NCBI GenBank assembly: GCA_020696385.1
Contig: JAEHCQ010000001.1
Coordinates: forward strand, 96,001-160,000
Direction of reading: 5' to 3'
Length of the DNA stretch: 64,000 nt
Source of the DNA: Methanobacteriota archaeon
GTDB taxonomy: Archaea; Thermoplasmatota; Thermoplasmata; SG8-5; JAGLSY01
In this document: piece after piece, positions 40,328 through 63,921 of the stretch
Layout of the letters: each line of letters begins with the position of its first letter
Position numbering within the stretch: position 1 is the first letter of the stretch
Program-made: the position numbers and the translations under genes
The notes under the pieces: generated by a model
Told to the model about the DNA's origin: nothing
The model's database searches: none
The model's input: only the letters and a program-made list of their open reading frames with translations

Positions 40328-43300
40328 ATGAAATACGCTCATAGCAGAAAGAGTAGTGTGGTAGCTTGCAGAATTTTGGCAATTTTCCTAATGATATCTT
40401 TGATATCCCCAGGAATAGCCTCTGCGTCTAACAGTCTGATGGGGAATGATATCACTTCCCAGGGTCTGGTAGATATTGAACCAGTTATTAACGGAATGGT
40501 CACTAATGATCATGATGCCGATGATGGGGGTGCTAGTCTATTCGGTGCCATAGGCGATACAACGAACTTTGATCACGATATCGAGGTTTCCAATATATTG
40601 TCTCCTGCGGATGCAGGGGTCTATCCCACGGATGCCGTCGAGATCAATGCCACCATAAAAAATCTAGGGATAGAAGAATCCTTTGATGTCAGGTATGAAG
40701 TCGGATATTATGATAATGCCAATACCATCTTTTTCCAGGATGATATGGAGGGGGGCAACAATGGATGGTCCCACTATGGATTCGGTGATGAATGGGAACG
40801 GGGATATCCTTCTGCTGGCCCAGGGTCTGCACATTCGGGCTTCAATTGCTGGGGAACTGACCTCAATTCATATTATTCAAATAATGCAGATCAATGGCTG
40901 GTGTCTCCATCCATCGATCTGACAGCTACAAGCACTGCCACCCTGTCCTTCTGGATGTATGTCAATATTGAGGGATATGTTTGGGATCATGCTTACGTGT
41001 ACATAAATGACGGTGTGGATCATCAACTATATTACTCTGGCACAGGCTCTGGACCACATAACACAGCATGGCAATATTACGAGTACGATGTCTCAGCTTA
41101 CACTGGAGGCATGGTCACCTTGAAATGGAGACTGGATACTGATTCAAGTGTCACTTATACAGGGGTGTATGTGGACGATGTGACCATAAATACCACCATG
41201 GACTCAAAGGTCATACTGCAAGAAGGAATAGAATCTGTTTCCAATCTTCCGGCTGGCGAATCCATGAATTTATTCGGTAGTTCTTACACTTTCACCACAG
41301 AAGGTGATAATTTCTACATGGATGTCGAGTCCCTATTGGCCTCAGACCAGGATACTTCAAATGATATAATGACAGCAAATTATACAATAGCCGATATTCA
41401 TGATGTTGGAGTATCTTCGATAAACTATCCAGAGAATGGAGAGCTTTACCCTATCGGTATGCAGGCGGTGAATGCCACAGTGATCAATAGTGGGACATTA
41501 ACAGAGAGCTTCCTGGTCCAGTGTACGATAAGAGATTCCTCCTATGCAATAGTATACTCGGATACAGAGAGTGTGACAGGAATGCCCTATGGCACAGAAT
41601 CAATAGTGACCTTCGCCCCTCAATGGAATGCCCTTGTAGAAGATGATTACACTATTGAGGTCATGACCATATTGGGCACTGATGAAGATCCATCCAATAA
41701 CAATCTGACAGGATCATTCACCATCGAGGATATAGAAGATGTTGGAACATCCGCTCTTAGATCTCCTGAAATAGGCAATTTCTACCGCGATGGAGCAGTG
41801 GAAATAGATGCTTCCGTGATCAATCACGGCAATGTTCCCCGATCCTTCATAACGAACTACACTATTGGCACAGCGACTGTGACAAATCAGAACATTTTCG
41901 TGGATGACTTTGAATCTGGAGCAATAGGCTGGACTCAAACCGGGGGTATACAGGGACAAAATACAATTGTGGATGAAAATTTTGATGGATCATTCCCTCC
42001 CGCTGGATGGAACGTTATAGATTATCAGGGCTGGGGAATGACCTGGTACCGGAATGATATGGTGGGTAGTGCTAATTATGCAGGAACTGGATTCTGCGCA
42101 GATGCAGACAGCAGTGCCTTGTGGGGGCCTGGAGTTAATACAGGTCTGAGAACACCAAGCTTCAATTTGGTAGGCTACACAGATGCGACCCTGAATTTCT
42201 CACATTCCTACCTTGACTTTACAATAGGGACTGGAGATTATGCAGAGGTCCGTGTGAGCACAAACGGCGGGTTCAGCTGGAGCCAGATAGCGTATTACAA
42301 TGAGCAGCATTCTCCTTTTGGACCCGGTGAAGCTGTAAGCTTAAGCCTCAATGCCTTCCTAGGCCAGCCAAGTGTCACAGTGGAATTTCATTATGATGAT
42401 TATTCATGGGATTTCTGGTGGATGGTCGATGATGTCGAAATAATTGGAACCAGTGCTATGTCCCCTCAATGGCAATTGGGTGCTCCGGCCTTCGGAGATG
42501 TCACAAATGCCCACGGCGGTACAAATTGCTGGGGAACAGATCTCATAGATAATTATTATCCAGATATGTCAGCCACACTTACCAGCCCGAGCTTCAGTCT
42601 TAGTGGCACTAGCAATGAGCGCCTTTCATTCTGGCACACTCACGACTTCTACAATACAGAAGCAGGTGGGATCGTGGAGGTATCGGTTGATAACCTACCA
42701 TGGGTGAAAATAGACCCAATAGCGGGCGATTCATGGTACTCGACAAGCAATGCCTTCAGTGGTGCAGATGCTTTCACAGGAGACACATACCAGGATTGGT
42801 ATCAATCCACCTATGACATGACCCCTTTCAATGGCAGTAACAATGTTCGCTTGCGATTCAGTTTCCAATCCACATCAAATATAGCCTGTCATGAGGGATG
42901 GTATATCGACGATGTAATGGTTACTGGCGAGATAATTTCTCTCAATAATATCATTGGTTGGGGAGATGAAATGGTCTCCAACTTGCAACCAGGAGAAGAA
43001 GTGGATGTATTCGGTAATTCCCACATCTTCACCAGTGAGGGAATGTACCACATCGAGGTAAAGACATTGCTGGCCTCAGATGAGGATAACAGTAATGATA
43101 TCATCAGTGGTTTCTTTGAGATCAAGAATGTCTTCGATGTAGGAGCGAGTGTCATAAATTCACCAGCAATTGGTGTAGCCTACCCAGTGGGAGCATTGGA
43201 GATAAATGGAACAGTGACTAATTTCGGGAATGTTCCAGCCAGCTTCATAACCAATTATACAATAGGATCCATGAATGTCACATCCAATATCCTATATTCC

Positions 43301-46300
43301 GATGATCTTGATTCGGGAGCGCTCGGATGGTGGACGTCTGATGGAGGGAATGAAGTCATTTATAATGAAGAGGGCAGCGGTACTGACTCGAGCAATTGGT
43401 ACTCAACACCTGGCGATGATCTATTCATATCTGCAGGAGATGGATTCTGTTATGATGTTAGTAGTACTACAGGGGATGGCATTTCATTATACTCATCCGG
43501 GAATTTCATCACATTCGACCTCTCCGGGAATGCTGGGGCTGTTTTGGATATGTCACTGGACGCTTACTTATTCTATGGAACGTCATCCAGAGTGAAATAT
43601 CTGGGAGTTTACGGGGGCTCAACTCCAGCAACATCATCTTTGATAGATGCCTCCAGCGCATATACAGTCTCCAATTCTGGATCAACTATTAGCTGGGATA
43701 ATATCAATATACCGTCATCTCCGTATTATATCAAAATTCTGGTAGGATTCCCCTCCAGCCTTAACACTTTTGCTTTTGATAACTACACATTCAAATTAAC
43801 TCAGCCAGGCTCTAGCTTTGAGATCGGAGCTCCATCATATGGAGATATCACAAATGCCAATAGCGGCGCAAATTGCTGGGGAACCGATCTTACAAGCAAT
43901 TATGTTCCGGACACCACCTGCAAGGTCACCTCACCAGCCTTCGATCTTTCCACAGGAACTGACAATGAAAAACTCAGTTTCTGGCATACACATGATTTCT
44001 ATAGCAGTGAAGGCGGTGGTATCGTGGAGATATCAACAGATAATTCCACATGGACCAAGGTCGATCCGATAGCAGGCGATACATGGTATTCCACAAGCAA
44101 TGCTTTCAGTGGTGCAGATGCATTCACAGGAGATACATATCGAGATTGGTACCAATCCACCTTTGATCTGAGCCCCTTCAGTGGCAATAGTGATGTACGC
44201 GCACGTTTCACTTTCCAATCCTCATCAGATCCAACATGCAATGAAGGATGGTACATCGATGACATCGTGGTAACTGGCGATATCATTGTTTTAAGCAGTA
44301 TCATTGATTGGGGAGACCAAATGGTATCCAACCTTCAGCCGGGAGAAGGTATCAATGTCTTTGGCAACACCTACACATTCACCAGCGAGGACACATATTA
44401 CATCCAGATGAATACACAGCTGGCAACTGATGAAGATAATACAAACGATCAGGTGGATGGATTCTTTTTGATAGATAATTTATACGATGTGGGAGTAGTT
44501 TCCATAGATTCACCACTTGATGGTGGAGTATACGGCGCATTATCAGTACCGATAGAAGCCACTGTTGAGAACTATGGTAATGTTCCAGTTAGCTTCATAA
44601 CAAACTACACATTAGGAAATTACACACTTGATGAGATCTCGATACTAGAAGATGATTTCGAAGCTGGAGCCCCAGGTTGGGTTGCTACCGGAGGGATCAT
44701 GGCCTTTGATGAATCGGATATTCAAGTGATATCTTTCCCCACCTTCAGTTCTGTACCAACTAACCATCCTTTCACATTTACATATCCAGCCACCGGCGCT
44801 GGAACCATATATCTCGACGCAAAGGATGGGGATTTTGATTCTACAGCCGAGTACATAGATGTATGGGCGGAGACCACGACCGGAACATATATTGGCCGGG
44901 GTCAGATCGGAGCGCAGAATAATCCCAACTGGATGCCCACAACGCCTCATTCGTGGACCGTGTCAGCAGCACAGATCAATGCATGGGGAGCAAGTGGGAC
45001 GATCAATATCGTATGCTCTTTTTCCTCAGGGGTCAATGACCTTGGAGGAGACAATGAGGTGAGAATAAGACTCACCTATCCCTCAGCGGTCACACCATGG
45101 GAACTCGGAGTGCCTTTCAACCAGGATATAACTTCAGCTAATAGCGGAACAAATTGCTGGGGTACGGATCTGACAGCGAATTACATATCAGACAGCGAGG
45201 TCACACTCACATCACCAAGCTTTGACCTAACTCCAAGTATGATGAACGAAGAGCTCAGCTTCTGGCACTCACATGATTTCTATAATACAGAGGCTGGGGG
45301 TGTGGTCGAGATATCCACTGACCCAGCACACACCACCTGGACAAAGATAGATCCGATAGCTGGAGATTCCTATTACAATTCATGCAATGCCTTTTCCGGA
45401 GGTACTGCCTTCACAGGTGATACTTATCGGGACTGGTATCAATCAACATTCGATCTGAGCGCGTACAGGAGCTACAATGATATCCAGATACGATTCAATT
45501 TCAAATCATCGACCTCGGCCACATGCCATGAAGGATGGTTCATTGACGATGTGAACATCACAGGGGTTGCCTTGGTAGGCATGAATGTACTGGACACCAA
45601 AGACGAAATGGTTGTGAACCTACAGCCAGGAGAACAGTTCAATGTCTTTGGAAATACCTTTAATTTCACAAAAGAGGAATACTATTGGCTCAATGTGGAG
45701 ACCAGACTTGCAAATGATGAGATGAATAGCAATAATTACTCATCATCCTTATTTGAGATCTACAATTACGATGATGTAGAAATTGTCAGTATAGAGCCCT
45801 TTGATCAAAATATCATGTACCCGATCAGTATCTATTCTCCAAATGCCACTATAAGCAATATCGGCAATTACTATGCCTCAGGGTTCAATGTGACCTGCGA
45901 TATAAGAAATGGAATGGGAACCCTGGTCTATTCGGACACGGTGGCCATATCGACCATAATGTTGCCAGGGGAGACACGCACCATCGATTTCCTTGATTGG
46001 AACGCACTCACGGAGACCGACTACATAATGACCATTCATATTGACTACGCCCTGGATGAGGACAGTTCCAATGATGATCTGGCAGTTGGTTTCATAATAG
46101 AAGATGTTTACGATGTGGGAGCTTATGACATAACAGGAATGGTGAATGGTGACACTTACACTACCGGAAGCTATGGCATCTCGACATTGGTAAGGAACTT
46201 CGGTAATATACCTCAACCGAGCTTCGACACAATATGCCAGATAACTGACTCACTTGGCATAACCGTTTACTCCAATATCCAAACAATTGGACTGATGCCG

Positions 46301-49300
46301 GATGAAGAAGCGATGATATCTTTCACTCCAACCTGGGATGCTTTTGTAGAAGGAGTGTACACGATAGATTGCTTCACATTGCTAGCAGGTGATGAGTTCA
46401 ATACAAATAATGGAACCCAGATCACCGTGATAATAAACGATATCTATGATGCCACGGTCTTATCCATCGATTCTCACACAAATGGAGACACTTACCCAAC
46501 TGGCGAACAACGCATAACTGCGAATATCGGTATATTGGGTAATGTGCCAAGCCCTTCTTTCGTGGTGGCGTGTACGGTGACCAGTTCCACCAATAATCAA
46601 GTATACTACGATGAAGAAACTGTTCCAGCAGGACTGTCACCAGGAGCCTTTGTGGATATATTGTTCTCACCTTTCTGGAACGTCAATGTGGAGGACACAT
46701 ACCACATCTCGGTGGAAACCAGATTATTGGGCGATGAAGTACCGACCAATGATCAAATGGACATCATGATATTCATCGACGATATCTACGATCTGGGTAT
46801 TGTTTCAATGGATCCATTTGTCAATAGTGGTTCATACCCGATAGATACATACCAACTAGAGGCGACTGTACAGAATCTGGGTAATGTTCCAACATCTGGA
46901 TTCGAGGAAGTGTATTTCGAGATCCAAGATGACATGGGCATACCTTTGTACAACAATACGGTAATGATAGGAAGCGGACTGCTCCCAGGAGATACTGAGA
47001 CCATTGTCGTTTGCCCTGAATGGAATGCCTCGATCGAAGGCATCTATTACCAGTATGCCACAACGACAATGGCAATAGACCACAACACAGCGAATGACGA
47101 TATGCTCATATGGATGGAGATAGACGATGTGCTGGATCTGGAGGTCACTTCTATTGATACTTTTACCAATGCTGGCACTTATCCAGGAGGAAGTTACACC
47201 ATAAATGCCACACTGTCCAATTTGGGACATCTGGATATCATGAACCAATTGGTGGAATGCAAGGTCGCTTCTTCCAGTGGAACGGTCGTCTACACAAGCC
47301 AATACACATTACCTTCTCTGGCTGCAGGGAATTCAACCCAGATAACCTTCACACCAGACTGGGCGATCAATATCGAAGACACCTACATCGTGCAGGTCTG
47401 GACAGCCCTCACTGGCGATGAGAACCCAGGTAATGATCTGAGAAGCATGGTGATATATCTGGACAATCTACACGATGCAGAGGCATTGTCCATAGAGACC
47501 TTCATCGATGGAGGGGTGTATTATGCAGATTCATACTTTGTGAACGGCACTATCTGGAACAATGGTAATGTACCCATATCGGGATTTGATGTTTCTGTCA
47601 CTGTGATCGACTCATCCAATACCCAGGTCTATTACTCCACGACCACGATCTCATCCCTTCTATTGCCAGGAGAGAATGCCAATGTCTCGATCCAGCCAGC
47701 CTGGATACCGACTCAGCCAGATACATACAGGATCAAACTGAGGACCACCCTATCGGGCGATGAAGTCCCTTCGAACGATGAGATAGAATACATGATTCAG
47801 ATCGAAGGACATGATGTGGGAGCCATAGATATTCCTGGCTTCACAAACAATGCCACATACAATACTGGAACCTATCAGGTAGATGGGATAATCAAGAACT
47901 TCGGAAGCTTGCAGGAGAATGATGTGGGAGTCACATGCGATGTACGAGACTCCACTAATGCCATAGTGTTCACGACCACTCACATTATACCATCCATCAA
48001 CCCAAGTGAGGAAGTGGCATTTACTTTTGCGACGAACTGGACAGTGGCGATCGAGGATACATACACCATAGAGGTCTTCACCACACTGAACTATGACCTT
48101 ATCACCATTAATGATCTAACATCCAGATCGATCATCATAGATGATCTCCATGATATCGCGGTCATATCCAGCGCCCCCTTCGTAGAAGGAGGTACTTATT
48201 CGGCAGGCACATACTCGATAAATGTCACCCTGGACAATCTGGGAGACATAGATGAGGCCAATGTACTGGTAAACTGCACTATCGTAGACTCACTCAGTAC
48301 CATCGTTTACAGCTCGGAGTTCACAATACCATCAATATCCAACATGCAGACCATATCCTTCACACCCGACTGGAATGCCATGATACTGGATGATTACACA
48401 ATGACAATATCGGTTATATTCCCGACAGATGAGAATGCGGCAAATGACATACTCACTGTCAACTTCACTATCGGTATTTATCACGATATTGCCATGATCG
48501 GAACCCCCACCTTCCTTGATGGAGGGATCTATCCAACTGGTTCATATGCCATGAAAGCGGTCATTGAGAATATTGGAACCGAAACAGAGTCGCCTGTTTT
48601 CATAGCCTGTGAGATATTTGACTCGAGTAACACTTCAGTATATATGAGCCTGGGAGGAGTGGGGATCGTCAATTCTGGTGATCAGGCAGAGGCCACTATC
48701 GGCCTTATATGGAATGCACTGATAGAAGGAGATTATACCATCAAACTTGATGCGATCCTACCCACGGATCAGAATATGGCCAATAATCAGTTCATCATAA
48801 GCATATCAATAGATGATAAGCATGATATCGCGGTGACTGATATCCAAACCTTCCTTGATGGAGGAATCTACAGCACTGGCACCTACACTATAAATGCCAC
48901 CGTGGAAAATGCAGGAACCTCTCTGGAAAACAATATCATGGTCAACTGTACCATCAGAGATTCGTTGAATGTGATTGTGTATTCGTCAGAATACACAATC
49001 ACATCAATGGACTGGGGAACCAGCATGGACATAATTTTCCTACCTAACTGGACAGCGAATATTGAGGAAGATTATACGATCAGCGTCACTTCATATCTCG
49101 CCATCGATGATGACAATACCAATAATCAGACCCTGAACACCTTCACCATCGATGAATTCCACGATATCGTGGTAACTGGCATGGGTCCCTTCACAGAAGG
49201 AAGCTCATACAATCAGGGTGATTACAACATAACAGCCGACATAGTCAATAATGGATCTATAGAGGATACGAATATCCTGATCAACTGCACCGTGACTGAC

Positions 49301-52300
49301 GGAATTGGCACCATCGTTTATTGGGATGAAGTAACTGTAGCCTCCTTGCTTTCCGGAGAGAATACCACAGTGACCTTCCTGCCATGGACTGCTGATTCGG
49401 AAGATAATTTCACGATTACCATAACCTCATCCCTGGCCAATGATGATAATACCATCAATGATGTAATGGCATGCCATATCGTCATTGATGATTATCACGA
49501 TATAGCATTGACTGGCTTCGGACCTTTCATTGACGGTGGCGTATACCAGACAGGGACGAATACCATGACCGCCTCGATAACGAACATGGGCACTATCGCG
49601 GAGATCGATATCACTGTAAATTGCATAATTTATGATTCCACGATGTCCATTGTGTATTTCAGAAATTCATTCATACCTCTCATCAATCCCGGCCAGACGA
49701 TCATCGTGACCTTCAGCCCGGATTGGACAGCGAATATTGAGGATGATTATAGGATATATTATGAATGCTGGCATCCACTGGATGATGATCCAACAAATGA
49801 TATTGAAAATATCTACATAACCGTGGATGAGTACCATGATATTGGTCTTACGACCACGCAACCTTTTGCAGATCTCGGAGTTTATCCAGCTGGAACCTAC
49901 ACGATCGATGTGTCAATAGAGAATTTGGGAACTATCGACGAGTACGGCATGGAAGTTGTGTGCATGATCATCGATTCTTCCAGTGGTGTTGTTTACAGCC
50001 AGAACCTGACGATCGCCTTCATCGCCATGGGAGATACTATGATAATAACCTTCATTCCAGACTGGATACCATCAGCAGACGATTCCTACACGCTGATAGC
50101 CACCGTGGGACTGGCCAATGATGAGAACATTATCAATGACCAGCACTCCACCCTGTTCTACATAGACATGACACCACCCACTGCAGATCCAGGACCTGAT
50201 GATTTCACCTTTGAGGATTCCATATATTTCTTCGATGGCACAGGCTCCTATGATCAACATGGTATCATGAATTACACATGGGACTTCGGAGATGGACAGA
50301 TCGGATATGGGCCAGCACCAGATCACACATATTCCCTCCAGGGCATCTACTTCATCAATCTGACAGTGGCTGATGCCATGGGATTGACAGACACGAATAT
50401 GATGACCCTCATGGTCAATAATGTGAATCCGACAGCTGATGCTGGAATGGATATATCTATTCCAGAAGGTGATATTGTTAACTTCGACGCTTCAAACTCA
50501 ACTGACACGATATCCGATATACCCACCCTTGTTTACACATGGGACTTCGGGGATGGTAATACATCCAATTTGATGACCCCCGCTCACACATATTATTCTT
50601 CAGGAACCTACATGGTCACCCTGGAGGTCATGGACGATGATGGAGCGATCAGTTATGCTTACATCAATGTGACCGTGATAAATGTGGGACCAATAGCCGT
50701 TCCAGGAGGACCATACATGGATGATGAGGGAACCATCATATCCTTTGACGCTTCGGGATCTTATGAGCCTGGAAGCGACATCATACTCTATGAATGGGAC
50801 TGGAACAATGACGGCATCTATGATGAGAGCTCGGTCGGACCATCAGCGAACCACACATGGTATGCCGCTGGTGTTTACGCCATATCACTGAAGGTCACTG
50901 ATGAGGATGGTCATTCACACGAAACAGGCACCAATGTGACGATAAATGATGTAGCTCCTGTTTCCGTACATGGAGGTCCATACAGCGGAAATGAAGGAAC
51001 TATCATAACCTTCAATGGCAGCAGCTCCTACGAACCAGGTGATGATATCACACTCTATGAATGGGACCTGGACAATGATGGAACATTCGAGACCATCGGC
51101 ATGGAAGTCAGTATGTCCTGGTTCACCGCCGGTGTCTACACGGTCGGACTCAGGGTGACAGACGAGGATGGTTCCTCCGATATTTCCACAACGACCGTGG
51201 ATGTCATTGACGTGGCCCCGGTCGCGATAATAATCGGAGGATCTATAGTGGTGGAGGAAGGAGAATCCATAATACTGGATGGCTCAAATTCCTATGAACC
51301 GGGAGATGATATAATTCTGTATGAATGGGATATGGATAATGATGGAACATTCGATCATACCAGCATCTCACCTCTCTTTGTCAATAATTGGGGCGCTCCT
51401 GGAACCTATACTGTCCTTCTCCAGGTAACGGATGAGGACGGATCGGTAGGTAACGAAACGACCATGATCATCATATCGAATGTGATGCCGATCGCCGATC
51501 CATCTGGACCATACCAGGGATCTGAAGGACAGGCGATCTCATTCAATGCCGGAGCCTCTTATGAGCCTGGTGATGATATAATTCTGTATGAATGGGACTG
51601 GAACAATGACGGGGTATATGATGAGAGCTCGGCAGTTCCAGGTATCACACACCAATGGGACGTCCCAGGAACCTACACCCTGCGCCTCATGGTCACTGAT
51701 GACGATGGTACAACGGACATGGCAATGACAACTGTGGTTGTTCATAATGTGGCTCCGATCCCAGTTCCTGGCGGACCTTATTCTGATCTTGAAGGAGCGG
51801 CGATTGTCTTTGATGCCAGTGGTTCCATCGAGCCAGGTGATGACATACTGCTCTATGAGTGGGACTTTGACAATGATGGAATATTTGATTCCATATCCGG
51901 AAGCCCATTATCATCCATGACATGGTATTCGGCAGGGATGTTCAATGTCCTTCTAAGAGTGACAGATGCGGATGGATCCTCGGGTATGGCCACCGTGATG
52001 GTGACCATTTCAGATGTAGCCCCTGTTGCGGTTCTCGGTGGACCTTACACAGGTGATGAAGCATCGTCTGTCATGTTGGATGCTTCGGCATCCTCCGAAA
52101 TAGGCAATGATATCATTCTCTATGAATGGGACTGGAACAATGATGGAACATATGACTTCAGTTCCAGCAACCCATGGGCTGCAAACACATGGTACACCTC
52201 AGGTGCTTACACCGTGTGGCTGAAAGTGACAGATGAGGAAGGATCAATTGATCTGTCTTCAGCAGTGGTGAATGTCAATGATATCGCCCCAACAGCCGAT

Positions 52301-55039
52301 GCTGGCGATCCACAGGTTTGTAATGAGGAAGAACTCATAATACTGGATGGATCTGGTTCTACCGAACCTGGCGACGATATCGTCCTTTACGAATGGGACT
52401 TCGATGATGATGGAACATATGACTTCAGTTCCAGCAACTTCTGGGCCATAAACATCTGGAGCCTACCAGGAACTCATATTGTGACGCTCAGGGTGACAGA
52501 TGCGGATGGATCTTCGGATATGTCGTTGACGACGATTGTCGTCAACGACATAGCTCCTGTTGCAGTAGCTGGCGGACCTTACCAGGGTTCGGAAGGCCAG
52601 ACCGTTTCATTCAGTGCCGAGGCATCTTATGAGCCTGGTGATGATATCATTCTCTATGAATGGGATTGGAACAATGACGGAGTTTATGAGGATAGCTTTG
52701 CCACCTCGGGTGTGACACATACCTGGGACTCGGCTGGCACCTACATAATACGCCTCATGGTGACAGATGTGGATGGTTCCACGAATATCGCCACGACCAC
52801 GGTGGAGATCATGGATATTGCCCCGGTCGCCATGCCAGGCGGACCGTATTCCGAAACTGAAGGAACAGCCATTAACTTCGATGCTTCAGCCTCTTATGAG
52901 CCTGGAAATGATATAATTCTGTATGAATGGGACTTTGATAATGATGGGGTATTTGATTCCATATCCGGAGATCCAATGTCTTTCTGGACATGGGACTCAG
53001 CAGGTGTTTCCAATATCCTTCTCAGGGTCACGGATTCGGATGGATCAACAGATACCGCGACGGTCATTGTCACTGTTTTGGATGTGGCTCCTGTCGCGGT
53101 GCTCGGAGGACCTTACACCACGGATGAAGGAATATCCATAAGGTTCGATGCTTCAGCCTCTTATGAGCCTGGAAATGATATCGTTCTGTATGAATGGGAT
53201 ATAGATAATGATGGAGCATATGATGTTTCATCATCCGACCCATGGACAGACCATACCTGGAACACGGCCGATGTCTACGTCATCGGCCTTCGTGTGACTG
53301 ATTCGGATGGTTCACACGATGAGATCACCGTGACAGTCACTGTCAATGATCAGGCTCCTGTCGCGATAGCGGGTGGACCATATTCATGCAATGAGGGCGA
53401 ACTCCTTGTACTGGATGCTGGAGATTCTACAGAACCTGGAGATAATATCATATCGTACGAATGGGATATGGACAATGACGGGGTCTTTGAAGAGAGTTAT
53501 ACCATACCTTATCTCATGCACACGTGGTACACACCAGGAACTTACACAGTGGGACTCATGGTCACAGATACAGATGGTTCTACAGATACTATCACCCTGG
53601 ATGTCCTTGTACAGAACATCGCCCCGGTGGCGGATCTATCCGGACCTTATCAGGGATCGGAAGGGCAATTGATATCATTCAATGCCGAGGCCTCCTATGA
53701 GATCGGTGATGACATCGTTCTGTATGAATGGGATTGGAACAATGATGGAGCATATGACATTGAGACCGATGTGGCTGGTGCGAACCATCAATGGGATGAG
53801 CCCGGAACCTACACCCTGCGTCTCAGAGTGACTGATGAAGATGGTTCTTCTGATACGACCACGACCTCTATCGAGATAGGCCATGTGGCTCCGACAGCCG
53901 TACCTGGAGGACCTTATTCATGCAATGAGAGCGAGGTATTGGTATTCGATGTTTCAGCCTCTTATGAGCCTGGTGATGATATCGTCCTGTATGAATGGGA
54001 CCTGGACAATGATGGAATCAATGACGTGGTATCATCACAGCCAGTATGCTCCTATTCCTGGGATTCAGCTGGTCAAGTATCGGTCTATCTGAAGGTGACC
54101 GATTCTGACGGTTCAACCGACATTGTGATATTCTCGGTCATGATATATGACATCGCCCCAACCGCGATGATCGTATCTGGACAATCTGGAGATGAGGCCT
54201 CACCAATGGCCTTCGATGCTTCAGCTTCCCATGAGCCAGGTAATGATATAATTCTGTATGAATGGGATTGGAACGGGGACGGTATCTTCGACCTCATTGA
54301 TCCTTCGCCATGGGCTCAGAATACCTGGTACACACCCGGCAACTATACTGTTTGGCTGAGGGTGACGGACGAGGAAGGATCCTATGACCTGGCAAGCATG
54401 AACATCACCATCGAGGATCTGGATGACATCGATGGCGATGGATTCCTGGATATTTGGGAAGAAGCACTTCATACGGACCCACTGGACCCATATGACATGC
54501 CCATCGATACAGACAATGACGGCATGCCAGATGGGGACCACTACAATAGCCAGATGTGGATGGACAATGATGACGACAATGACGGTGTCCTTGACAGTGG
54601 TGATTCAGCTCCAACCGACGACTCGAAATACAAAGAGCCAACCGCCTGGGATAACTGGTGGTGGCTGGCACTTCTGCTAACTATCATCCTCATACTGTTG
54701 ATCGTACTGATCATCCTGTACCTCATGGAAGAGGAAGAGGAAGAAGAGGAAGAAGAAGAAGAGCTTGATGATGAGGAATTCGAAGAGGAATATGAGGAAG
54801 AGTTCGAAGATGAGCTCGCAATGGGAGCTTATGAAGCTGAAGAACCCGAAATGGAAGTCGATGAGGAACCCGAGATGGAGTTCGAAGAGGAAGAAGCCCT
54901 GGAGATGGATATCGATGAAGAACCATCATTGGACGAAAGGACCCAGATCCTTCTGGAGAAACTGGAAAACCTTTACCAGGATGGAAAGATAAAAGAGGAT
55001 ACATACATCAATAACAAGGAAAAACTGTTGGGGAATTAA
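40328..55039 (+). CDS. Giant 4903-aa type I membrane surface protein (signal peptide, ~18 CARDB-like Ig domains with 4 interrupted by jelly-roll/cleaved-adhesin-like domains, 16 PKD domains, Ca-binding Asp repeats, TM helix, acidic tail, SHOCT-like end)
   Basis: RBS GAGGTGGA; hydrophobic N-terminus; recurring (H/Y)D(I/V)xV...NxG...DExxxND units; four NCWGTDL...(W/V)Y(I/V)DD jelly-roll units; YTWDFGDG x2 and YEWDxxxDG x14; DIDGDG / DTDNDGMPDG / DNDDDNDGVLD; WWWLALLLTIILILLIVLIILYL; poly-Glu; LEKLENLYQDGKIKEDTYINNKEKLL. Confidence 0.95.
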   Translation: MKYAHSRKSSVVACRILAIFLMISLISPGIASASNSLMGNDITSQGLVDIEPVINGMVTNDHDADDGGASLFGAIGDTTNFDHDIEVSNILSPADAGVYPTDAVEINATIKNLGIEESFDVRYEVGYYDNANTIFFQDDMEGGNNGWSHYGFGDEWERGYPSAGPGSAHSGFNCWGTDLNSYYSNNADQWLVSPSIDLTATSTATLSFWMYVNIEGYVWDHAYVYINDGVDHQLYYSGTGSGPHNTAWQYYEYDVSAYTGGMVTLKWRLDTDSSVTYTGVYVDDVTINTTMDSKVILQEGIESVSNLPAGESMNLFGSSYTFTTEGDNFYMDVESLLASDQDTSNDIMTANYTIADIHDVGVSSINYPENGELYPIGMQAVNATVINSGTLTESFLVQCTIRDSSYAIVYSDTESVTGMPYGTESIVTFAPQWNALVEDDYTIEVMTILGTDEDPSNNNLTGSFTIEDIEDVGTSALRSPEIGNFYRDGAVEIDASVINHGNVPRSFITNYTIGTATVTNQNIFVDDFESGAIGWTQTGGIQGQNTIVDENFDGSFPPAGWNVIDYQGWGMTWYRNDMVGSANYAGTGFCADADSSALWGPGVNTGLRTPSFNLVGYTDATLNFSHSYLDFTIGTGDYAEVRVSTNGGFSWSQIAYYNEQHSPFGPGEAVSLSLNAFLGQPSVTVEFHYDDYSWDFWWMVDDVEIIGTSAMSPQWQLGAPAFGDVTNAHGGTNCWGTDLIDNYYPDMSATLTSPSFSLSGTSNERLSFWHTHDFYNTEAGGIVEVSVDNLPWVKIDPIAGDSWYSTSNAFSGADAFTGDTYQDWYQSTYDMTPFNGSNNVRLRFSFQSTSNIACHEGWYIDDVMVTGEIISLNNIIGWGDEMVSNLQPGEEVDVFGNSHIFTSEGMYHIEVKTLLASDEDNSNDIISGFFEIKNVFDVGASVINSPAIGVAYPVGALEINGTVTNFGNVPASFITNYTIGSMNVTSNILYSDDLDSGALGWWTSDGGNEVIYNEEGSGTDSSNWYSTPGDDLFISAGDGFCYDVSSTTGDGISLYSSGNFITFDLSGNAGAVLDMSLDAYLFYGTSSRVKYLGVYGGSTPATSSLIDASSAYTVSNSGSTISWDNINIPSSPYYIKILVGFPSSLNTFAFDNYTFKLTQPGSSFEIGAPSYGDITNANSGANCWGTDLTSNYVPDTTCKVTSPAFDLSTGTDNEKLSFWHTHDFYSSEGGGIVEISTDNSTWTKVDPIAGDTWYSTSNAFSGADAFTGDTYRDWYQSTFDLSPFSGNSDVRARFTFQSSSDPTCNEGWYIDDIVVTGDIIVLSSIIDWGDQMVSNLQPGEGINVFGNTYTFTSEDTYYIQMNTQLATDEDNTNDQVDGFFLIDNLYDVGVVSIDSPLDGGVYGALSVPIEATVENYGNVPVSFITNYTLGNYTLDEISILEDDFEAGAPGWVATGGIMAFDESDIQVISFPTFSSVPTNHPFTFTYPATGAGTIYLDAKDGDFDSTAEYIDVWAETTTGTYIGRGQIGAQNNPNWMPTTPHSWTVSAAQINAWGASGTINIVCSFSSGVNDLGGDNEVRIRLTYPSAVTPWELGVPFNQDITSANSGTNCWGTDLTANYISDSEVTLTSPSFDLTPSMMNEELSFWHSHDFYNTEAGGVVEISTDPAHTTWTKIDPIAGDSYYNSCNAFSGGTAFTGDTYRDWYQSTFDLSAYRSYNDIQIRFNFKSSTSATCHEGWFIDDVNITGVALVGMNVLDTKDEMVVNLQPGEQFNVFGNTFNFTKEEYYWLNVETRLANDEMNSNNYSSSLFEIYNYDDVEIVSIEPFDQNIMYPISIYSPNATISNIGNYYASGFNVTCDIRNGMGTLVYSDTVAISTIMLPGETRTIDFLDWNALTETDYIMTIHIDYALDEDSSNDDLAVGFIIEDVYDVGAYDITGMVNGDTYTTGSYGISTLVRNFGNIPQPSFDTICQITDSLGITVYSNIQTIGLMPDEEAMISFTPTWDAFVEGVYTIDCFTLLAGDEFNTNNGTQITVIINDIYDATVLSIDSHTNGDTYPTGEQRITANIGILGNVPSPSFVVACTVTSSTNNQVYYDEETVPAGLSPGAFVDILFSPFWNVNVEDTYHISVETRLLGDEVPTNDQMDIMIFIDDIYDLGIVSMDPFVNSGSYPIDTYQLEATVQNLGNVPTSGFEEVYFEIQDDMGIPLYNNTVMIGSGLLPGDTETIVVCPEWNASIEGIYYQYATTTMAIDHNTANDDMLIWMEIDDVLDLEVTSIDTFTNAGTYPGGSYTINATLSNLGHLDIMNQLVECKVASSSGTVVYTSQYTLPSLAAGNSTQITFTPDWAINIEDTYIVQVWTALTGDENPGNDLRSMVIYLDNLHDAEALSIETFIDGGVYYADSYFVNGTIWNNGNVPISGFDVSVTVIDSSNTQVYYSTTTISSLLLPGENANVSIQPAWIPTQPDTYRIKLRTTLSGDEVPSNDEIEYMIQIEGHDVGAIDIPGFTNNATYNTGTYQVDGIIKNFGSLQENDVGVTCDVRDSTNAIVFTTTHIIPSINPSEEVAFTFATNWTVAIEDTYTIEVFTTLNYDLITINDLTSRSIIIDDLHDIAVISSAPFVEGGTYSAGTYSINVTLDNLGDIDEANVLVNCTIVDSLSTIVYSSEFTIPSISNMQTISFTPDWNAMILDDYTMTISVIFPTDENAANDILTVNFTIGIYHDIAMIGTPTFLDGGIYPTGSYAMKAVIENIGTETESPVFIACEIFDSSNTSVYMSLGGVGIVNSGDQAEATIGLIWNALIEGDYTIKLDAILPTDQNMANNQFIISISIDDKHDIAVTDIQTFLDGGIYSTGTYTINATVENAGTSLENNIMVNCTIRDSLNVIVYSSEYTITSMDWGTSMDIIFLPNWTANIEEDYTISVTSYLAIDDDNTNNQTLNTFTIDEFHDIVVTGMGPFTEGSSYNQGDYNITADIVNNGSIEDTNILINCTVTDGIGTIVYWDEVTVASLLSGENTTVTFLPWTADSEDNFTITITSSLANDDNTINDVMACHIVIDDYHDIALTGFGPFIDGGVYQTGTNTMTASITNMGTIAEIDITVNCIIYDSTMSIVYFRNSFIPLINPGQTIIVTFSPDWTANIEDDYRIYYECWHPLDDDPTNDIENIYITVDEYHDIGLTTTQPFADLGVYPAGTYTIDVSIENLGTIDEYGMEVVCMIIDSSSGVVYSQNLTIAFIAMGDTMIITFIPDWIPSADDSYTLIATVGLANDENIINDQHSTLFYIDMTPPTADPGPDDFTFEDSIYFFDGTGSYDQHGIMNYTWDFGDGQIGYGPAPDHTYSLQGIYFINLTVADAMGLTDTNMMTLMVNNVNPTADAGMDISIPEGDIVNFDASNSTDTISDIPTLVYTWDFGDGNTSNLMTPAHTYYSSGTYMVTLEVMDDDGAISYAYINVTVINVGPIAVPGGPYMDDEGTIISFDASGSYEPGSDIILYEWDWNNDGIYDESSVGPSANHTWYAAGVYAISLKVTDEDGHSHETGTNVTINDVAPVSVHGGPYSGNEGTIITFNGSSSYEPGDDITLYEWDLDNDGTFETIGMEVSMSWFTAGVYTVGLRVTDEDGSSDISTTTVDVIDVAPVAIIIGGSIVVEEGESIILDGSNSYEPGDDIILYEWDMDNDGTFDHTSISPLFVNNWGAPGTYTVLLQVTDEDGSVGNETTMIIISNVMPIADPSGPYQGSEGQAISFNAGASYEPGDDIILYEWDWNNDGVYDESSAVPGITHQWDVPGTYTLRLMVTDDDGTTDMAMTTVVVHNVAPIPVPGGPYSDLEGAAIVFDASGSIEPGDDILLYEWDFDNDGIFDSISGSPLSSMTWYSAGMFNVLLRVTDADGSSGMATVMVTISDVAPVAVLGGPYTGDEASSVMLDASASSEIGNDIILYEWDWNNDGTYDFSSSNPWAANTWYTSGAYTVWLKVTDEEGSIDLSSAVVNVNDIAPTADAGDPQVCNEEELIILDGSGSTEPGDDIVLYEWDFDDDGTYDFSSSNFWAINIWSLPGTHIVTLRVTDADGSSDMSLTTIVVNDIAPVAVAGGPYQGSEGQTVSFSAEASYEPGDDIILYEWDWNNDGVYEDSFATSGVTHTWDSAGTYIIRLMVTDVDGSTNIATTTVEIMDIAPVAMPGGPYSETEGTAINFDASASYEPGNDIILYEWDFDNDGVFDSISGDPMSFWTWDSAGVSNILLRVTDSDGSTDTATVIVTVLDVAPVAVLGGPYTTDEGISIRFDASASYEPGNDIVLYEWDIDNDGAYDVSSSDPWTDHTWNTADVYVIGLRVTDSDGSHDEITVTVTVNDQAPVAIAGGPYSCNEGELLVLDAGDSTEPGDNIISYEWDMDNDGVFEESYTIPYLMHTWYTPGTYTVGLMVTDTDGSTDTITLDVLVQNIAPVADLSGPYQGSEGQLISFNAEASYEIGDDIVLYEWDWNNDGAYDIETDVAGANHQWDEPGTYTLRLRVTDEDGSSDTTTTSIEIGHVAPTAVPGGPYSCNESEVLVFDVSASYEPGDDIVLYEWDLDNDGINDVVSSQPVCSYSWDSAGQVSVYLKVTDSDGSTDIVIFSVMIYDIAPTAMIVSGQSGDEASPMAFDASASHEPGNDIILYEWDWNGDGIFDLIDPSPWAQNTWYTPGNYTVWLRVTDEEGSYDLASMNITIEDLDDIDGDGFLDIWEEALHTDPLDPYDMPIDTDNDGMPDGDHYNSQMWMDNDDDNDGVLDSGDSAPTDDSKYKEPTAWDNWWWLALLLTIILILLIVLIILYLMEEEEEEEEEEEELDDEEFEEEYEEEFEDELAMGAYEAEEPEMEVDEEPEMEFEEEEALEMDIDEEPSLDERTQILLEKLENLYQDGKIKEDTYINNKEKLLGN
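45770..50160 (+). repeat. 13 tandem ~113-aa CARDB-like coding repeats
   Basis: Counted from unit starts DDVEIV, YDVGAY, YDATVL, YDLGIV, LDLEVT, HDAEAL, HDVGAI, HDIAVI, HDIAMI, HDIAVT, HDIVVT, HDIALT, HDIGLT. Confidence 0.85.
50170..54420 (+). repeat. 16 tandem PKD-domain coding repeats (~267 bp, 89 aa)
   Basis: Two WDFGDG units followed by 14 YEWDxxxDG...VTDxxG units. Confidence 0.9.
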
Positions 55040-59217: not shown

Positions 59218-60861
59218 ATGAGAACCTTCAAATTATCCCGGAATGTGGTCTTATTGGCCCTGTTGTTCATCATAGTGCTGAACGTCGCCATGAGGTATCC
59301 CACGACACCTCACGAGATAGGTGACGACGGGTTCATGAACCAAGCACTGGCGAAGTACATCACGCAGGAAGGATACGCTTCCTGGCATACCAGTGTGTTC
59401 TCCTTCTTCGGGCTTGGTTCTTTCACCTACCCTGCGGGGTACCAGTTCGTATTATCCGAGGTCTCACAGCTGACTGGCTTCAGTTTGGAGGTCAGTGTGT
59501 TTGTCATTTCCACCTTGGTAGGAGTGTTTGGGGCCTTGTTCGCTTTCATAATGACCAGGGAGATATTCCAGGATGACTTCACCGCTCTGCTTGGAGCTTT
59601 TATTTTCTCAACCGCTCCGCTTTTCCTTAGAATAACAAATTGGAATGCCTCTGCGAGGCAGTTGTTGCTTATGTACATACCACTTCTGGTCTTCTTACTT
59701 CTACGAACAGACCTGGTAAAGAAAGCAGAGAAAAAGAACTTCATTGGCAAGGAAGTTTACATGGCATTGACATTGATATTATTACTTACGATGGGGATGA
59801 TCCACAGATTGGCAATATACCTCTTCCTTGTAATAGTTGCTTTCATGTTCTCGATGATTCTTTTTAAAATGAAAAGAGCCTACACGATAAGAAAAGGAGT
59901 ATTGACCTTCAGAAAGCATGACATAGCGATGATGACCTTCCTGATGCTATGGGGACTGATGATTACTGGATTTATATACATGCAACTGAGTAATTTCGGC
60001 CCTTATGCAGGTATGAATTTATGGTATAAATATCAGAGTGGATTTCTTTTTTCAGGGAGTGACATTCGGACTATATTCATCAATATGGCAATTGATTATG
60101 CAACTAGTTTTGGCATACTATCTGCTTTCGGTGTTCTTGGAGCAATTTACATGTTCCAAAAAAGAGAGAAAAATTATGGCTTTACATTCGTCGTTCTTTC
60201 TATGTTGATACTATCTCCATTATACACAATCGGTCTATACACCCAGATACTTGTATTCACATTTTTCTTTGTTATAATGGTAGTAGGCATAGCAGGCTTG
60301 TTGAATAACAAAAAAATAAGAAAGATAGCAATGCCTATGCTAGTCATTATTATTATTTCTTCAGTAGGGTTTTCAGGCTTCATGATCGGGCATTGGCAAT
60401 CATCTGTAGGTGGAAATTACATGACTGAAAGCGAGTTTAATGCAGCTCTTTATGCCCATGAATATATCAATGATAATGAAACTTTTGTAACTAACAATCA
60501 AGTTTTTGGAAATAGAGTTATTGGGGTTGCAGATGCACAGTTTTTGACAGAAGATTTCGCGTATCCATTGATATATGGCTGGGTTGATAAAGAAGAAGCA
60601 AAAAGAGAATTTGATTTGGATAAAATGATCGAGGAAAAATCAATTATTGTAGTCAGTAATCTGGAAAAAGAAATTCTACACAATGCACGTGCAATAATTT
60701 TATCAGATATTGATGAAACTTTTGCCCTTCAAAGATATTATACTGTGAAATATTCAATAGAAAATACAAAGGCCTTATCAAGTTACACAGCAGAGGAAAG
60801 CATACATTCAAAGCGCTATTGTTTGTATTCAAATGGTATACAAAGTATATGGAAATTGTGA
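59218..60861 (+). CDS. Multi-pass membrane protein, GT-C-like (glycan transferase/polymerase candidate)
   Basis: Roughly 10-12 hydrophobic segments; acidic first external loop (HEIGDDGF) with YPAG; soluble C-terminal domain; lies within the GT operon. Confidence 0.6.
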   Translation: MRTFKLSRNVVLLALLFIIVLNVAMRYPTTPHEIGDDGFMNQALAKYITQEGYASWHTSVFSFFGLGSFTYPAGYQFVLSEVSQLTGFSLEVSVFVISTLVGVFGALFAFIMTREIFQDDFTALLGAFIFSTAPLFLRITNWNASARQLLLMYIPLLVFLLLRTDLVKKAEKKNFIGKEVYMALTLILLLTMGMIHRLAIYLFLVIVAFMFSMILFKMKRAYTIRKGVLTFRKHDIAMMTFLMLWGLMITGFIYMQLSNFGPYAGMNLWYKYQSGFLFSGSDIRTIFINMAIDYATSFGILSAFGVLGAIYMFQKREKNYGFTFVVLSMLILSPLYTIGLYTQILVFTFFFVIMVVGIAGLLNNKKIRKIAMPMLVIIIISSVGFSGFMIGHWQSSVGGNYMTESEFNAALYAHEYINDNETFVTNNQVFGNRVIGVADAQFLTEDFAYPLIYGWVDKEEAKREFDLDKMIEEKSIIVVSNLEKEILHNARAIILSDIDETFALQRYYTVKYSIENTKALSSYTAEESIHSKRYCLYSNGIQSIWKL

Positions 60862-60866
60862 ATTAT

Positions 60867-62018
60867 ATGAAAATTGCCTGGCTGTGTCCATATGATATGA
60901 CAAAAGAAGTTCGTGGTGGTGCAGAGAGACATATCATAAATTTGAAAGATGAGATTGTAAAAAACACAGATGTCGAGCTTCACATTGTCTATTGCACTAA
61001 TAAGAAAAACATGACAGTTCAAAAAGAGGCAGATAATATTACACTCCATCCAATTGATTCTTCAAGCTTACCAATGACAATTAAAGGAATCTTAATAGAT
61101 GATTTTAAGATCATGAAAACCGTCAAAAAAATAGATCCCGATATCATACATGCACAGATGATTGGGGCACCATATGGATTGGCGGCATCATTATTATCAA
61201 AAAAATATCCAACAATTGTAACCGTACATACCATGACCTTCCAGATGAAGAACAAGAAGCGCTCACTGAAAGGGATAATACATGATGTTATTTGGGAAGC
61301 ATTAGAGAAATGGGAAACAAAAAGGATACATGCTTTCATAGCTGTTGCCAATAATTTGGAAATAGAATTGAAAAGGATGAAGGCAGATAATATCACTGTT
61401 ATTCAAAATGGTGTCGAGAAAAAATGGTTTGACATGGATACAACTCCTGTGCCGGGAAGAATCATTTGTGTTGGTAGATTTCAAAAGATCAAAGGCCAAG
61501 ATCATCTACTTAGAGCCATCCATCAGGTCAAAAGCCAGGGAATAGAAATAGAGCTACATTTGATCGGAGGGATCTTTGACCATAAATACTACAATTCTCT
61601 AAAGGTTATGATAGATGAATTGAATATATCAAAAAATGTTGAATTTTTGGTAGATATAAACGATGATGAATTAGAAAAGGAATATGGTGAATCATCAATT
61701 TTCGTTCTACCGTCACGTGAAGAATCACATCCTATTGCGCTTCTGGAAGCGATGGCATCTGGCAAGCCAGTGATCGCAACTGGCGTTGGAGGCGTACCAC
61801 AGATGCTGACAACAGGAAGAGAAGGATATATCATCGAATATGGTGATTCGGATATATTGGCTAAACACTTGCAGACTTTGTTGAATGACGATACTCTAAG
61901 AAAGTCAATGGGGGAAAATGGGCGAGATACAGTTAGCAAAAACAGATGGAACGAGATTTCAGATAAAACATATCAATTATATTTAAATACTTTAAATAAC
62001 TTCAAAAATACTAGGTGA
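60867..62018 (+). CDS. Glycosyltransferase family 4
   Basis: Likely start MKIAWLCPY at 60867; GGAERH, VGRF..IKG and PSREESHPIALLEAMASG. Confidence 0.92.
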   Translation: MKIAWLCPYDMTKEVRGGAERHIINLKDEIVKNTDVELHIVYCTNKKNMTVQKEADNITLHPIDSSSLPMTIKGILIDDFKIMKTVKKIDPDIIHAQMIGAPYGLAASLLSKKYPTIVTVHTMTFQMKNKKRSLKGIIHDVIWEALEKWETKRIHAFIAVANNLEIELKRMKADNITVIQNGVEKKWFDMDTTPVPGRIICVGRFQKIKGQDHLLRAIHQVKSQGIEIELHLIGGIFDHKYYNSLKVMIDELNISKNVEFLVDINDDELEKEYGESSIFVLPSREESHPIALLEAMASGKPVIATGVGGVPQMLTTGREGYIIEYGDSDILAKHLQTLLNDDTLRKSMGENGRDTVSKNRWNEISDKTYQLYLNTLNNFKNTR

Positions 62019-62022
62019 TCCT

Positions 62023-62733
62023 ATGGATGACAAAATTCTATTGGCCTATGAAAAACATGGAATCGGCAAGAAAGATTATGATTTCATGAAAATGATGACA
62101 GACTGGAAGATGCAGAATTGCCTGTCTATACTACCAAATATAAAAATGTCAAAAATAATGGAAATTGGATGTGCTTCTGGAATGATGCTGAAAGAATTTG
62201 ATAAAAGATTAGCAGCGGACATGAACATAGGTCTTGACATGTCTGTCGGGAGTATTGAATTAGCCAAAGTAGAATTCCCAAAGAGTCATTATTTGGTTGG
62301 AGATGGTAAGATACTGCCATTCAAAGACAAATCAATAGACCTCGTAATCGCTAGTGATATAATAGAGCACTATGAAGATCCAGAAGAAGGATTGAAAGAA
62401 ATGCAAAGAATATCAAAATATATAATGTTCAAAATACCATTGGAAAAATGCTTAAAGACCGTTGATGATAAATACGGTGAAGATCACCCCAGTGGCCATT
62501 ATTTTAAATGGGATAAGAAAGGAGCAATAAAGTTATTAAAAAATTCAGGATTGGAAATTATAGATTATAGAGTGGATCATCCAGGCGAGAATATACGATT
62601 TTATAAAGAAAGGTATTTGCGTTACCCATTTCGAAAAGTCCTTATTAAATTTGAAAAGACAATATCAAGACATTTTAAAAATATATACCCATTTTTTTAT
62701 GGCAGTAATCTCTTTGTATTCTGTAAATCATAA
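62023..62733 (+). CDS. Class I SAM-dependent methyltransferase
   Basis: MEIGCASG, GLDMS and LPFKDKSIDLV..SDIIEH; RBS AGGTGA. Confidence 0.9.
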   Translation: MDDKILLAYEKHGIGKKDYDFMKMMTDWKMQNCLSILPNIKMSKIMEIGCASGMMLKEFDKRLAADMNIGLDMSVGSIELAKVEFPKSHYLVGDGKILPFKDKSIDLVIASDIIEHYEDPEEGLKEMQRISKYIMFKIPLEKCLKTVDDKYGEDHPSGHYFKWDKKGAIKLLKNSGLEIIDYRVDHPGENIRFYKERYLRYPFRKVLIKFEKTISRHFKNIYPFFYGSNLFVFCKS

Positions 62734-62756
62734 ATAAATATGATCCGGGTGCCCAA

Positions 62757-63920: not shown

Positions 63921-63921
63921 T

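Follow-up and report, generated by a model that had tools for sequence, protein, structure and literature searches.

Background

The splitting of one domain by another is a known principle of the bacterial RTX adhesins, in which, according to one account (PMC12077191), Ig-like stalk domains project binding domains, the heads including carbohydrate-binding modules (CBMs). In the same account, AhLap contains a three-level nest, in which an RTX roll holds a vWFA domain that holds a 9-kDa insert in its turn. The present analysis concerns an archaeal, recursively nested form of this principle, which is new and was found in a giant surface-protein gene of a Methanobacteriota archaeon of the class Thermoplasmata. 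This gene lies in a stretch of 64,000 nucleotides (assembly GCA_020696385.1, contig JAEHCQ010000001.1, positions 96,001 to 160,000), hereafter called the window, to which the nucleotide positions refer unless a contig is named. In the N-terminal part of its 4903-aa product, the presence of four units was confirmed, in each of which a CARDB Ig-like domain is interrupted by a MAM jelly-roll domain, the latter being interrupted again in units 2, 3 and 4.

The archaeal protein resembles RTX adhesins such as AhLap of Aeromonas hydrophila, FrhA of Vibrio cholerae and MpIBP in that a complete domain buds from an Ig-like stalk domain and the chain then re-enters the latter, in that several units with different heads stand at the fibre end of a protein of multiple thousand residues, far from the anchor, and in that jelly-rolls of the CBM type occur among the projected domains. 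Similarly, the termini of the interrupting domain lie together in the model of archaeal unit 4, as they do in the split-domain units of RTX adhesins. In contrast, the archaeal protein possesses an N-terminal signal-like segment and a C-terminal transmembrane anchor, whereas a type I secretion system (T1SS) signal and an N-terminal retention domain are described for RTX adhesins. Also unlike RTX adhesins, its C-terminus consists of a transmembrane helix and an acidic tail, its display region is N-terminal, and no RTX/HemolysinCabind family was retrieved in Pfam scans of the whole protein. The host is archaeal (an aIF5A gene adjoins) instead of a Gram-negative bacterium, the split domain is CARDB, a different stalk fold, a single conserved MAM subfamily makes up the second tier and is reused as a socket for unrelated third-tier domains, and three copies of the three-tier unit follow one another in tandem. 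The whole protein is not an RTX adhesin, and the likeness is one of layout only.

The separate tiers have described relatives as well. The MAM tier is of the same sequence family as the InhA-like MAM domains (Bacillus anthracis InhA2, 4yu5/4yu6; animal MAM domains 7uab, 2v5y and 8yt7), with a fold similarity of Z 12.6-14.0; unlike the matched MAM chains, it sits inside an Ig-like domain and hosts an insertion. The MAM-type domains of these chains were each aligned over one unbroken range of 130-180 residues, so that nothing in them corresponds to the insert region. The outer shell has the same fold as the CARDB domain of Pyrococcus furiosus PF1109 (3idu; Z 12.2, root-mean-square deviation (rmsd) 1.7, 98 residues), which is continuous in that protein (chain residues 438-540), whereas about 320 residues are inserted in unit 4. 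Neither a CARDB domain interrupted by a MAM domain nor nested insertions in archaeal surface proteins were found described in the literature searched; the word 'inserted' is absent from the available portion of a paper on Thermococcales Ig proteins with 489 CARDB architectures (PMC8416519).

With this locus, the split-domain rule, which so far was drawn from RTX adhesins of bacteria, also covers archaea and a stalk fold of another kind. As budding domains mark the binding heads of adhesins under this rule, it provides a means to locate the functional ends of unannotated giant proteins of sediment Thermoplasmata. In addition, it represents a compact natural case of recursive domain insertion, with three tiers occurring thrice in a row around a conserved middle tier, which bears on the routes of domain insertion and on protein-engineering scaffolds, a fixed turn tolerating unrelated guests.

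CARDB domains split by MAM domains in four N-terminal units

The nested region is contained in a single open reading frame (ORF) and is composed as follows:

40328-55039, + strand: surface-protein gene, one ORF of 4903 aa, spanning the entire nested region
40571-41398, + strand: unit 1 (aa 82-357), with N-terminal CARDB part (CARDB-N) aa 82-129, MAM aa 130-292 and C-terminal CARDB part (CARDB-C) aa 293-357
41399-41731, + strand: uninterrupted CARDB domain (aa 358-468), the reference for the split copies, found by self-profile
41732-43132, + strand: unit 2 (aa 469-935)
41732-41947, + strand: unit 2, CARDB-N (aa 469-514) and first MAM strands (aa 515-540, ending in GWTQTGG)
41948-42469, + strand: insert 1 (aa 541-714), predicted MAM-family jelly-roll nested in MAM
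42470-43132, + strand: unit 2, remaining MAM (aa 715-872) and CARDB-C (aa 873-935)
43133-44482, + strand: unit 3 (aa 936-1385)
43133-43348, + strand: unit 3, CARDB-N (aa 936-980) and first MAM strands (aa 981-1007)
43349-43816, + strand: insert 2 (aa 1008-1163), family not assigned, predicted all-beta
43817-44482, + strand: unit 3, remaining MAM (aa 1164-1322) and CARDB-C (aa 1323-1385)
44483-45772, + strand: unit 4 (aa 1386-1815)
44483-44695, + strand: unit 4, CARDB-N (aa 1386-1430) and first MAM strands (aa 1431-1456)
44696-45097, + strand: insert 3 (aa 1457-1590), orphan domain, mostly beta in the model
45098-45772, + strand: unit 4, remaining MAM (aa 1591-1751) and CARDB-C (aa 1752-1815)

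Regular expressions retrieved the same landmarks in the successive units, namely NYT[IL]G at the end of the first CARDB part (aa 510, 976 and 1426; RYEVGYYD instead in unit 1), NCWGTDL in the MAM domain (aa 173, 733, 1182 and 1609) and V[SV]NL in the resumed CARDB domain (aa 304, 883, 1333 and 1762). In units 2 to 4, the MAM domain is interrupted between GWxxxGG (aa 534, 1000 and 1450) and W/FxLGxP (aa 715, 1164 and 1591; WxLGxP hereafter), whereas the slot of unit 1 is empty (GWSHYGF-GDE-WERGYP). An earlier note on this DNA, made from the sequence alone, had proposed this nested arrangement. Its motifs were retrieved at the places given, its coordinates for inserts 2 and 3 were exact and those for insert 1 differed by less than 3 nt (41948-42467 against 41948-42469 here), and the empty slot of unit 1 was there as described.

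The nesting is established by profile searches and by a structural model. A jackhmmer profile seeded on the intact CARDB domain (aa 358-468) and iterated on the 4903-aa protein itself gave 22 matches, corresponding to 14 intact copies plus one N-half and one C-half in each of the four units. The halves are complementary, the N-half covering profile positions 1 to about 50 and the C-half about 30 to 110, with 130-340 residues between them, and the flanks on either side of the split align with the intact domain. With the Pfam CARDB family (PF07705), the uninterrupted repeats scored 91.6 bits (cut-off 22.7; E 3.9e-26) and the split halves 14.3-16.8 bits only, as expected for half domains. The interrupting domain was identified as Pfam InhA-like_MAM (PF20773; 72.5 bits, cut-off 26.9, E 4.2e-20, in three stretches), and the MAM domain of unit 1 matched this family by itself with 38.4 bits (E 1.2e-9).

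An AlphaFold2 model of unit 4 (430 aa) was made from a 72-row alignment in which the insert was covered by true homologs only. Its mean pLDDT was 83, with residues 1-70 and 206-430 at about 89-98. The model was compared with 48,161 chains by VIA-align and searched with Foldseek. It matched the CARDB domain 3idu_A over 98 of 116 residues (Z 12.2, rmsd 1.7), spread over model residues 1 to 427, and it matched MAM and CBM jelly-rolls over 140-169 residues (Z 12-14.4), beginning at 48-53 and ending at 363-364. Hence, as the CARDB and MAM folds are both assembled from discontinuous segments, unit 4 is nested and not serial. The best VIA-align match of its MAM domain was carbohydrate-binding 8jiy (Z 14.4), and further matches included SR-C 8yt7 (Z 14.0), RPTPmu 2v5y (Z 13.5) and meprin 7uab (Z 13.3); many CBMs scored Z 10-12, and the top Foldseek match was the InhA2 peptidase 4yu5 (E 1.7e-6; VIA-align Z 12.6). 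Long strands at model residues 37-57 and 351-378 lead from CARDB to MAM and back to CARDB, which suggests that the two strands would form a stiff two-stranded connection between these domains.

For units 2 and 3, nesting may be deduced at the sequence level from the half-profile matches, the scaffold identity and the same junctions. The scaffolds are 44-66% identical, and the junction motifs are identical. At the DNA level, the units share 62-77% identity, and no long stretches of identical sequence between them emerged from a scan for direct repeats. As a side observation, a segment of the pattern DPIAGDxWYSxxNAFSGxxAFTGDTYRDWYQST (e.g., window 44046-44262) is kept only in the insert-bearing MAM clade and is absent from the MAM domain of unit 1; it could represent a contact surface for the guest or a separate site.

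The three inserts

According to profile comparison, insert 1 is a second MAM-family jelly-roll, homologous to the family of its host. Compared with a 44-sequence MAM profile, it gave an hhalign probability of 97.75% (E 1.3e-12, 147 columns), and it starts with DENFDG and ends with WWMVDDVEI, thereby resembling the host MAM domain. It was also considered as a Cleaved_Adhesin domain (PF07675), the family of the gingipain cleaved-adhesin domains K1/K2/K3 (4itc, 3m1h), to which it bears a weak sequence likeness (E 0.009-0.059). Among PDB sequences, it weakly matched gingipain K1 (4itc, E 0.009); with 13.8 bits (E 0.059), the Pfam score lay below the cut-off of 21.4, and the MAM family fitted better. 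Gingipain cleaved-adhesin domains are arranged serially, and 4itc structurally matches the host MAM domain of unit 4 (Z 12.6). The likeness to a choice-of-anchor J domain claimed in the earlier note found no support: no family came up at E<=1 in an NCBIfam scan of aa 533-717, in which most matches weaker than about 0.1 are removed by the filters of HMMER.

Insert 2 had no match in Pfam, NCBIfam or PDB sequences. Homologs with 36% and 33% identity were retrieved from two other families of the class, located at L055 (G036:C439) and L056 (G037:C91), where they stand serially between FN3-like repeats of giant FG-GAP-rich proteins. Because it occurs serially in these two other surface proteins, insert 2 is considered, from its sequence relatives, to be an autonomous module captured by the slot. 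No relative was found among proteins of 274-2000 aa, which is a weak negative, giant proteins being outside this search, and its profile matched the own genome and one further sequence (E 5.9e-4) in 401 genomes of the phylum. During alignment, MAFFT kept placing the insert 2 homologs on MAM columns (shared ..GGxIVE..FDLS..), despite an hhalign probability of 2.3%; this overlap may be due to chance or may hint at a very remote jelly-roll kinship.

The only homolog found of insert 3 is an insert, 62-63% identical, within a MAM domain of a paralog (P0003) encoded on contig C44 of the same genome. Neither Pfam, NCBIfam and PDB nor proteins of 236-2000 aa (giant proteins being outside this search) contained a match to insert 3, its best score in the ESM Atlas was 0.85, which is under the useful range, and the copies detected across 201 genomes of the class were just the two in the own genome. 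Eight further matches (E 0.003-0.009), several with internal stops, were taken as chance.

The individual searches recommended in the earlier note hence gave a family for insert 1, namely MAM, and none for inserts 2 and 3, while its claim that the inserts differ was borne out by hhalign probabilities of 0.35% between inserts 2 and 3, 1.3% between insert 2 and insert 1/J3 (a MAM-like guest of a related genome, see below) and 0.1% between insert 3 and insert 1/J3. Compared with MAM, with each other and with insert 1/J3, inserts 2 and 3 gave profile-profile probabilities of 0.1-2.3%. These values come from shallow profiles (three sequences for insert 2, two for insert 3), by which very remote kinship could be missed; on this basis, both inserts appear unrelated to MAM and to each other. 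Both are orphan domains that might represent new binding folds.

Slot contents in related genomes

A profile search of the unit over 1.84 billion representatives gave 8567 matches at E<=0.001, the best 150 of which were scanned, together with the query, with four hidden Markov models (HMMs) of pieces of the unit. The 151 proteins contained 657 matches to the C-terminal part of MAM (MAM-C), seven of which had CARDB on both flanks and came from three proteins, P0001, P0002 and, as a weak case, P0093; a single such flank was seen in four others. True insertions in the MAM turn were present only in P0001, P0002 and P0003 among these proteins. The short HMM of the N-terminal part (MAM-N) found the first strands for 177 of the 657 matches, so that inserted distant MAM domains may escape this count. 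Most apparent gaps of 250-450 aa in MAM domains were rejected as insertions, for they represented a preceding tandem MAM domain, and P0067, taken as a nested candidate, turned out to be serial.

One counterpart, P0002, is encoded by the congeneric genome G001; it counts 4582 aa, is about 44% identical and contains three units. Its slots hold the domains J1 (209 aa), J2 (148 aa) and the MAM-like J3 (Pfam E 1.1e-5). Profile comparison showed J1 and J2 to be unrelated to MAM and J2 to be unrelated to insert 2 as well, so that other domains do occupy the slot in a related genome, as had been anticipated, and the diversity of the guests is established. For J1, the ESM Atlas returned unnamed clusters and DUF4960 only (0.94-0.95), which is a lead only. 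In the seven insert-bearing MAM domains of the two genomes, the junction motifs are identical, which establishes the slot as a fixed insertion site, and the socket-bearing MAM domains are 56-67% identical to one another. Another genome of this genus, G002, contains a more distant MAM domain in which the same turn holds an insert of about 190 aa (L034, G002:C22:159004-162483, ORF aa 287-647). The likeness of this insert to a DNRLRE domain is weak (NF033679, E 0.0072). Judged from its sequence, the host of the inserted MAM domain may be FN3-like, with the split in the first loop.

The unit without a guest is more widely distributed. In total, 32 of 61 related genomes matched the unit profile at E<=1e-10, mainly via MAM. 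MAM domains with an empty slot and CARDB on both flanks were found in G004 (two units), G017, G023, G036 and on contig C46 of the own genome, and one CARDB flank beside MAM was detected in several more relatives. Empty-slot units of this kind are hence the common form across the class. A search with the alignment of socket-bearing MAM domains matched only the G001 contig among genome contigs; among metagenome contigs, it gave 142 pattern matches, none of which was confirmed.

Evolution of the slot and transfer to another stalk fold

The relationships of the MAM domains were examined in a maximum-likelihood tree of their contiguous C-parts (15 rows). The seven insert-bearing MAM domains formed one clade (100/99), which establishes the monophyly of the socket-bearing form, and the empty MAM domains of unit 1 and P0003 fell apart from it (83/76). 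The MAM domains of the first two G001 units (G001_u1 and G001_u2) were sisters (100/99), yet their guests are unrelated, and the MAM domain of unit 4 grouped with the P0003 copy (81/84). It follows from this tree that the scaffold with its socket arose once and was duplicated, and that its content was replaced several times.

The paralog P0003 shows the module in a different host:

C44:124298-135889, - strand: P0003 (L004), 3854-aa paralog in the own genome G000

The host domain of this protein is not CARDB but a repeat of the pattern WYSxDxxxTW..PM..G / xWxGxIP..YYY. In two of these repeats, the interruption falls in the same loop and consists of a MAM domain, which carries the homolog of insert 3 in one repeat and is empty in the other; three intact copies adjoin the interrupted ones. 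As P0003 hosts MAM in another repeat, the MAM module, with a guest or with none, is transplantable between stalk folds. Between the paralogs, identity amounts to 62-63% for insert 3 and to 62% for the MAM domain that hosts it, an equal degree of conservation. Tentatively, the MAM subfamily may be seen as a dedicated, portable socket that enters hairpins in at least two unrelated stalk domains and takes up, at one fixed turn, at least five unrelated kinds of guest, exchanged between duplicated scaffolds. If true, this would be a natural two-adaptor system for multi-specific surface fibres and a template for engineered domain display.

Proposed function of the nested units

By analogy with the split-domain adhesins, the giant archaeal surface protein is probably adhesin-like, with its N-terminal ~1800 residues as the display region and the guests as heads. 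In the proposed mechanism, CARDB would act as the split domain, the chain leaving it after the third strand, making the MAM jelly-roll and returning to complete CARDB, both domains being linked by two long continuous beta-strands. In one MAM subfamily, the GWxxxGG/WxLGxP turn would have become a socket taking whole foreign domains; the scaffold would have been duplicated and its socket content swapped over evolution, the MAM domain with its guest being able to enter other hosts. The MAM domain would serve as a pedestal or socket and the guests as specificity-determining heads. The ligands of these heads (glycans, proteins, cells of other kinds or particles) would most likely differ, which would confer several specificities on one fibre. 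Because the membrane anchor is C-terminal, the nested units lie at the far end of the fibre, beyond about 14 CARDB and 16 PKD domains. A binding function and an outward projection of the guests are inferred from this arrangement, and inserts 2 and 3 are termed putative binding heads by analogy.

Several observations weigh against this interpretation. The source genome is metagenome-assembled and consists of 50 contigs, and the socket-bearing clade was detected in two genomes of one genus only, with two of the 150 best representatives besides the query. The exchange of guests as a mechanism of diversification is deduced from few events. Insert 3 (model residues 72-205) reached a pLDDT of only 48-64 in the unit 4 model, and insert 2, modelled alone from three sequences, one of 50.5, too low for a fold search. 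Insert 3, seen only inside the slot, is a candidate for an autonomous domain. The slot, which follows a short second strand, could lie nearer to CARDB than to the tip. Finally, because the slot is empty in unit 1 and in many relatives, the MAM domain itself may be the binding element and the guests accessory.

The latter point leads to an alternative explanation, in which the MAM jelly-roll is a functional carbohydrate-binding element while the domains of the third tier, sitting in a permissive turn, are tolerated accretions or modulators that lack a ligand specificity of their own. The prevalence of empty-slot units across the class, the best structural match with carbohydrate-binding 8jiy (Z 14.4) and many CBMs (Z 10-12), the strong conservation of the socket-bearing MAM domains (56-67% identity) and the poor models of inserts 2 and 3 agree with it. 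Yet, insert 1 and J3 are complete MAM-family domains, insert 2 is kept elsewhere as a stand-alone module (33-36% identity), and the conservation of insert 3 to the level of its host (62-63% versus 62%) argues for selection on the guests, so that this explanation is considered unlikely. Quite unlikely is a surface-tethered array of enzymes or accessory domains for polymer breakdown, in which the nested domains would be catalytic or substrate-feeding instead of adhesive. It would account for the naming of the MAM family after the InhA metallopeptidase, an NCBIfam match to the accessory region of M36 metallopeptidases (E 1.8e-24, although far below the model cut-off), the many structural neighbours that are CBMs of glycoside hydrolases, and the Atlas lead for J1 (DUF4960 and unnamed clusters, 0.94-0.95, a lead only). 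However, no catalytic family was present in the 4903-aa protein or in any guest at the thresholds used, and the remainder of the protein is purely Ig/PKD stalk and membrane anchor.

A polymorphic protein for cell-cell recognition (self/non-self or partner), with the socket contents as strain labels in the manner of VARTIG of Thermococcales, would explain why units at corresponding positions in congeneric genomes contain different guests, and archaeal CARDB architectures are very diverse in general (914 proteins with 489 architectures in PMC8416519). Nevertheless, the sample amounts to two or three genomes, the units are 62-77% identical in DNA with no recent recombination tracts seen, and the genes downstream code for aIF5A, an arginase-family protein and glycosyltransferases, in contrast with the variable small genes that accompany VARTIG; this function is very unlikely. 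As to an artefact, either by misassembly or by a misreading of serial domains, the metagenomic origin of the assembly would allow for it. It is highly improbable, as the frame is open over 14.7 kb, an independent genome shows the arrangement too, the two CARDB half-matches of a unit complement each other, and the structural matches span discontinuous ranges.

Protein layout and genomic neighbourhood

Two further features of the 4903-aa protein were delineated:

45773-50167, + strand: 13 tandem uninterrupted CARDB repeats (aa 1816-3280), the stalk, found by self-profile and Pfam CARDB (E 3.9e-26)
54656-54727, + strand: hydrophobic transmembrane segment (aa 4777-4800), read from the translation and followed by a poly-Glu tail

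The frame is open without a break across 40328-55039. The translation begins with a hydrophobic, signal-like segment, followed in order by the nested units, the CARDB repeats, a PKD array, a TSP3-like repeat, the transmembrane segment and the acidic tail; one intact CARDB domain (aa 358-468) separates unit 1 from unit 2, and a Pfam scan resolved the PKD array into 16 PKD_4 stretches, plus the TSP3-like repeat. This order identifies the product as a predicted membrane-anchored surface protein with a C-terminal anchor. The cytoplasmic tail (54728-55036) starts with a run of 12 Glu residues and is very acidic throughout, and its terminal short segment appears helical by eye. In public records, the homologs are titled 'hypothetical' or 'PKD domain-containing'.

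The window contains two more giant ORFs on the - strand, at 2-12589 and at 12577-38589 (8670 aa). They are arranged head to tail with an overlap of 13 nt and contain matches to DUF11, Big_1, Big_2, VWA and DUF7619. The former counts more than 4196 aa within the window and is part of an open frame of 8661 aa in the genome; together, the three giant genes represent more than 22,000 codons of surface protein in about 70 kb. Downstream of the surface-protein gene, genes for aIF5A, an arginase-family protein, presumably agmatinase-like, and glycosyltransferases were found. In addition, the GC content decreases from about 0.47 to about 0.35 in window positions 60001-64000, where genes for GT4 glycosyltransferases and for a methyltransferase are clustered; this may be an acquired glycosylation island adjoining the surface-protein genes.

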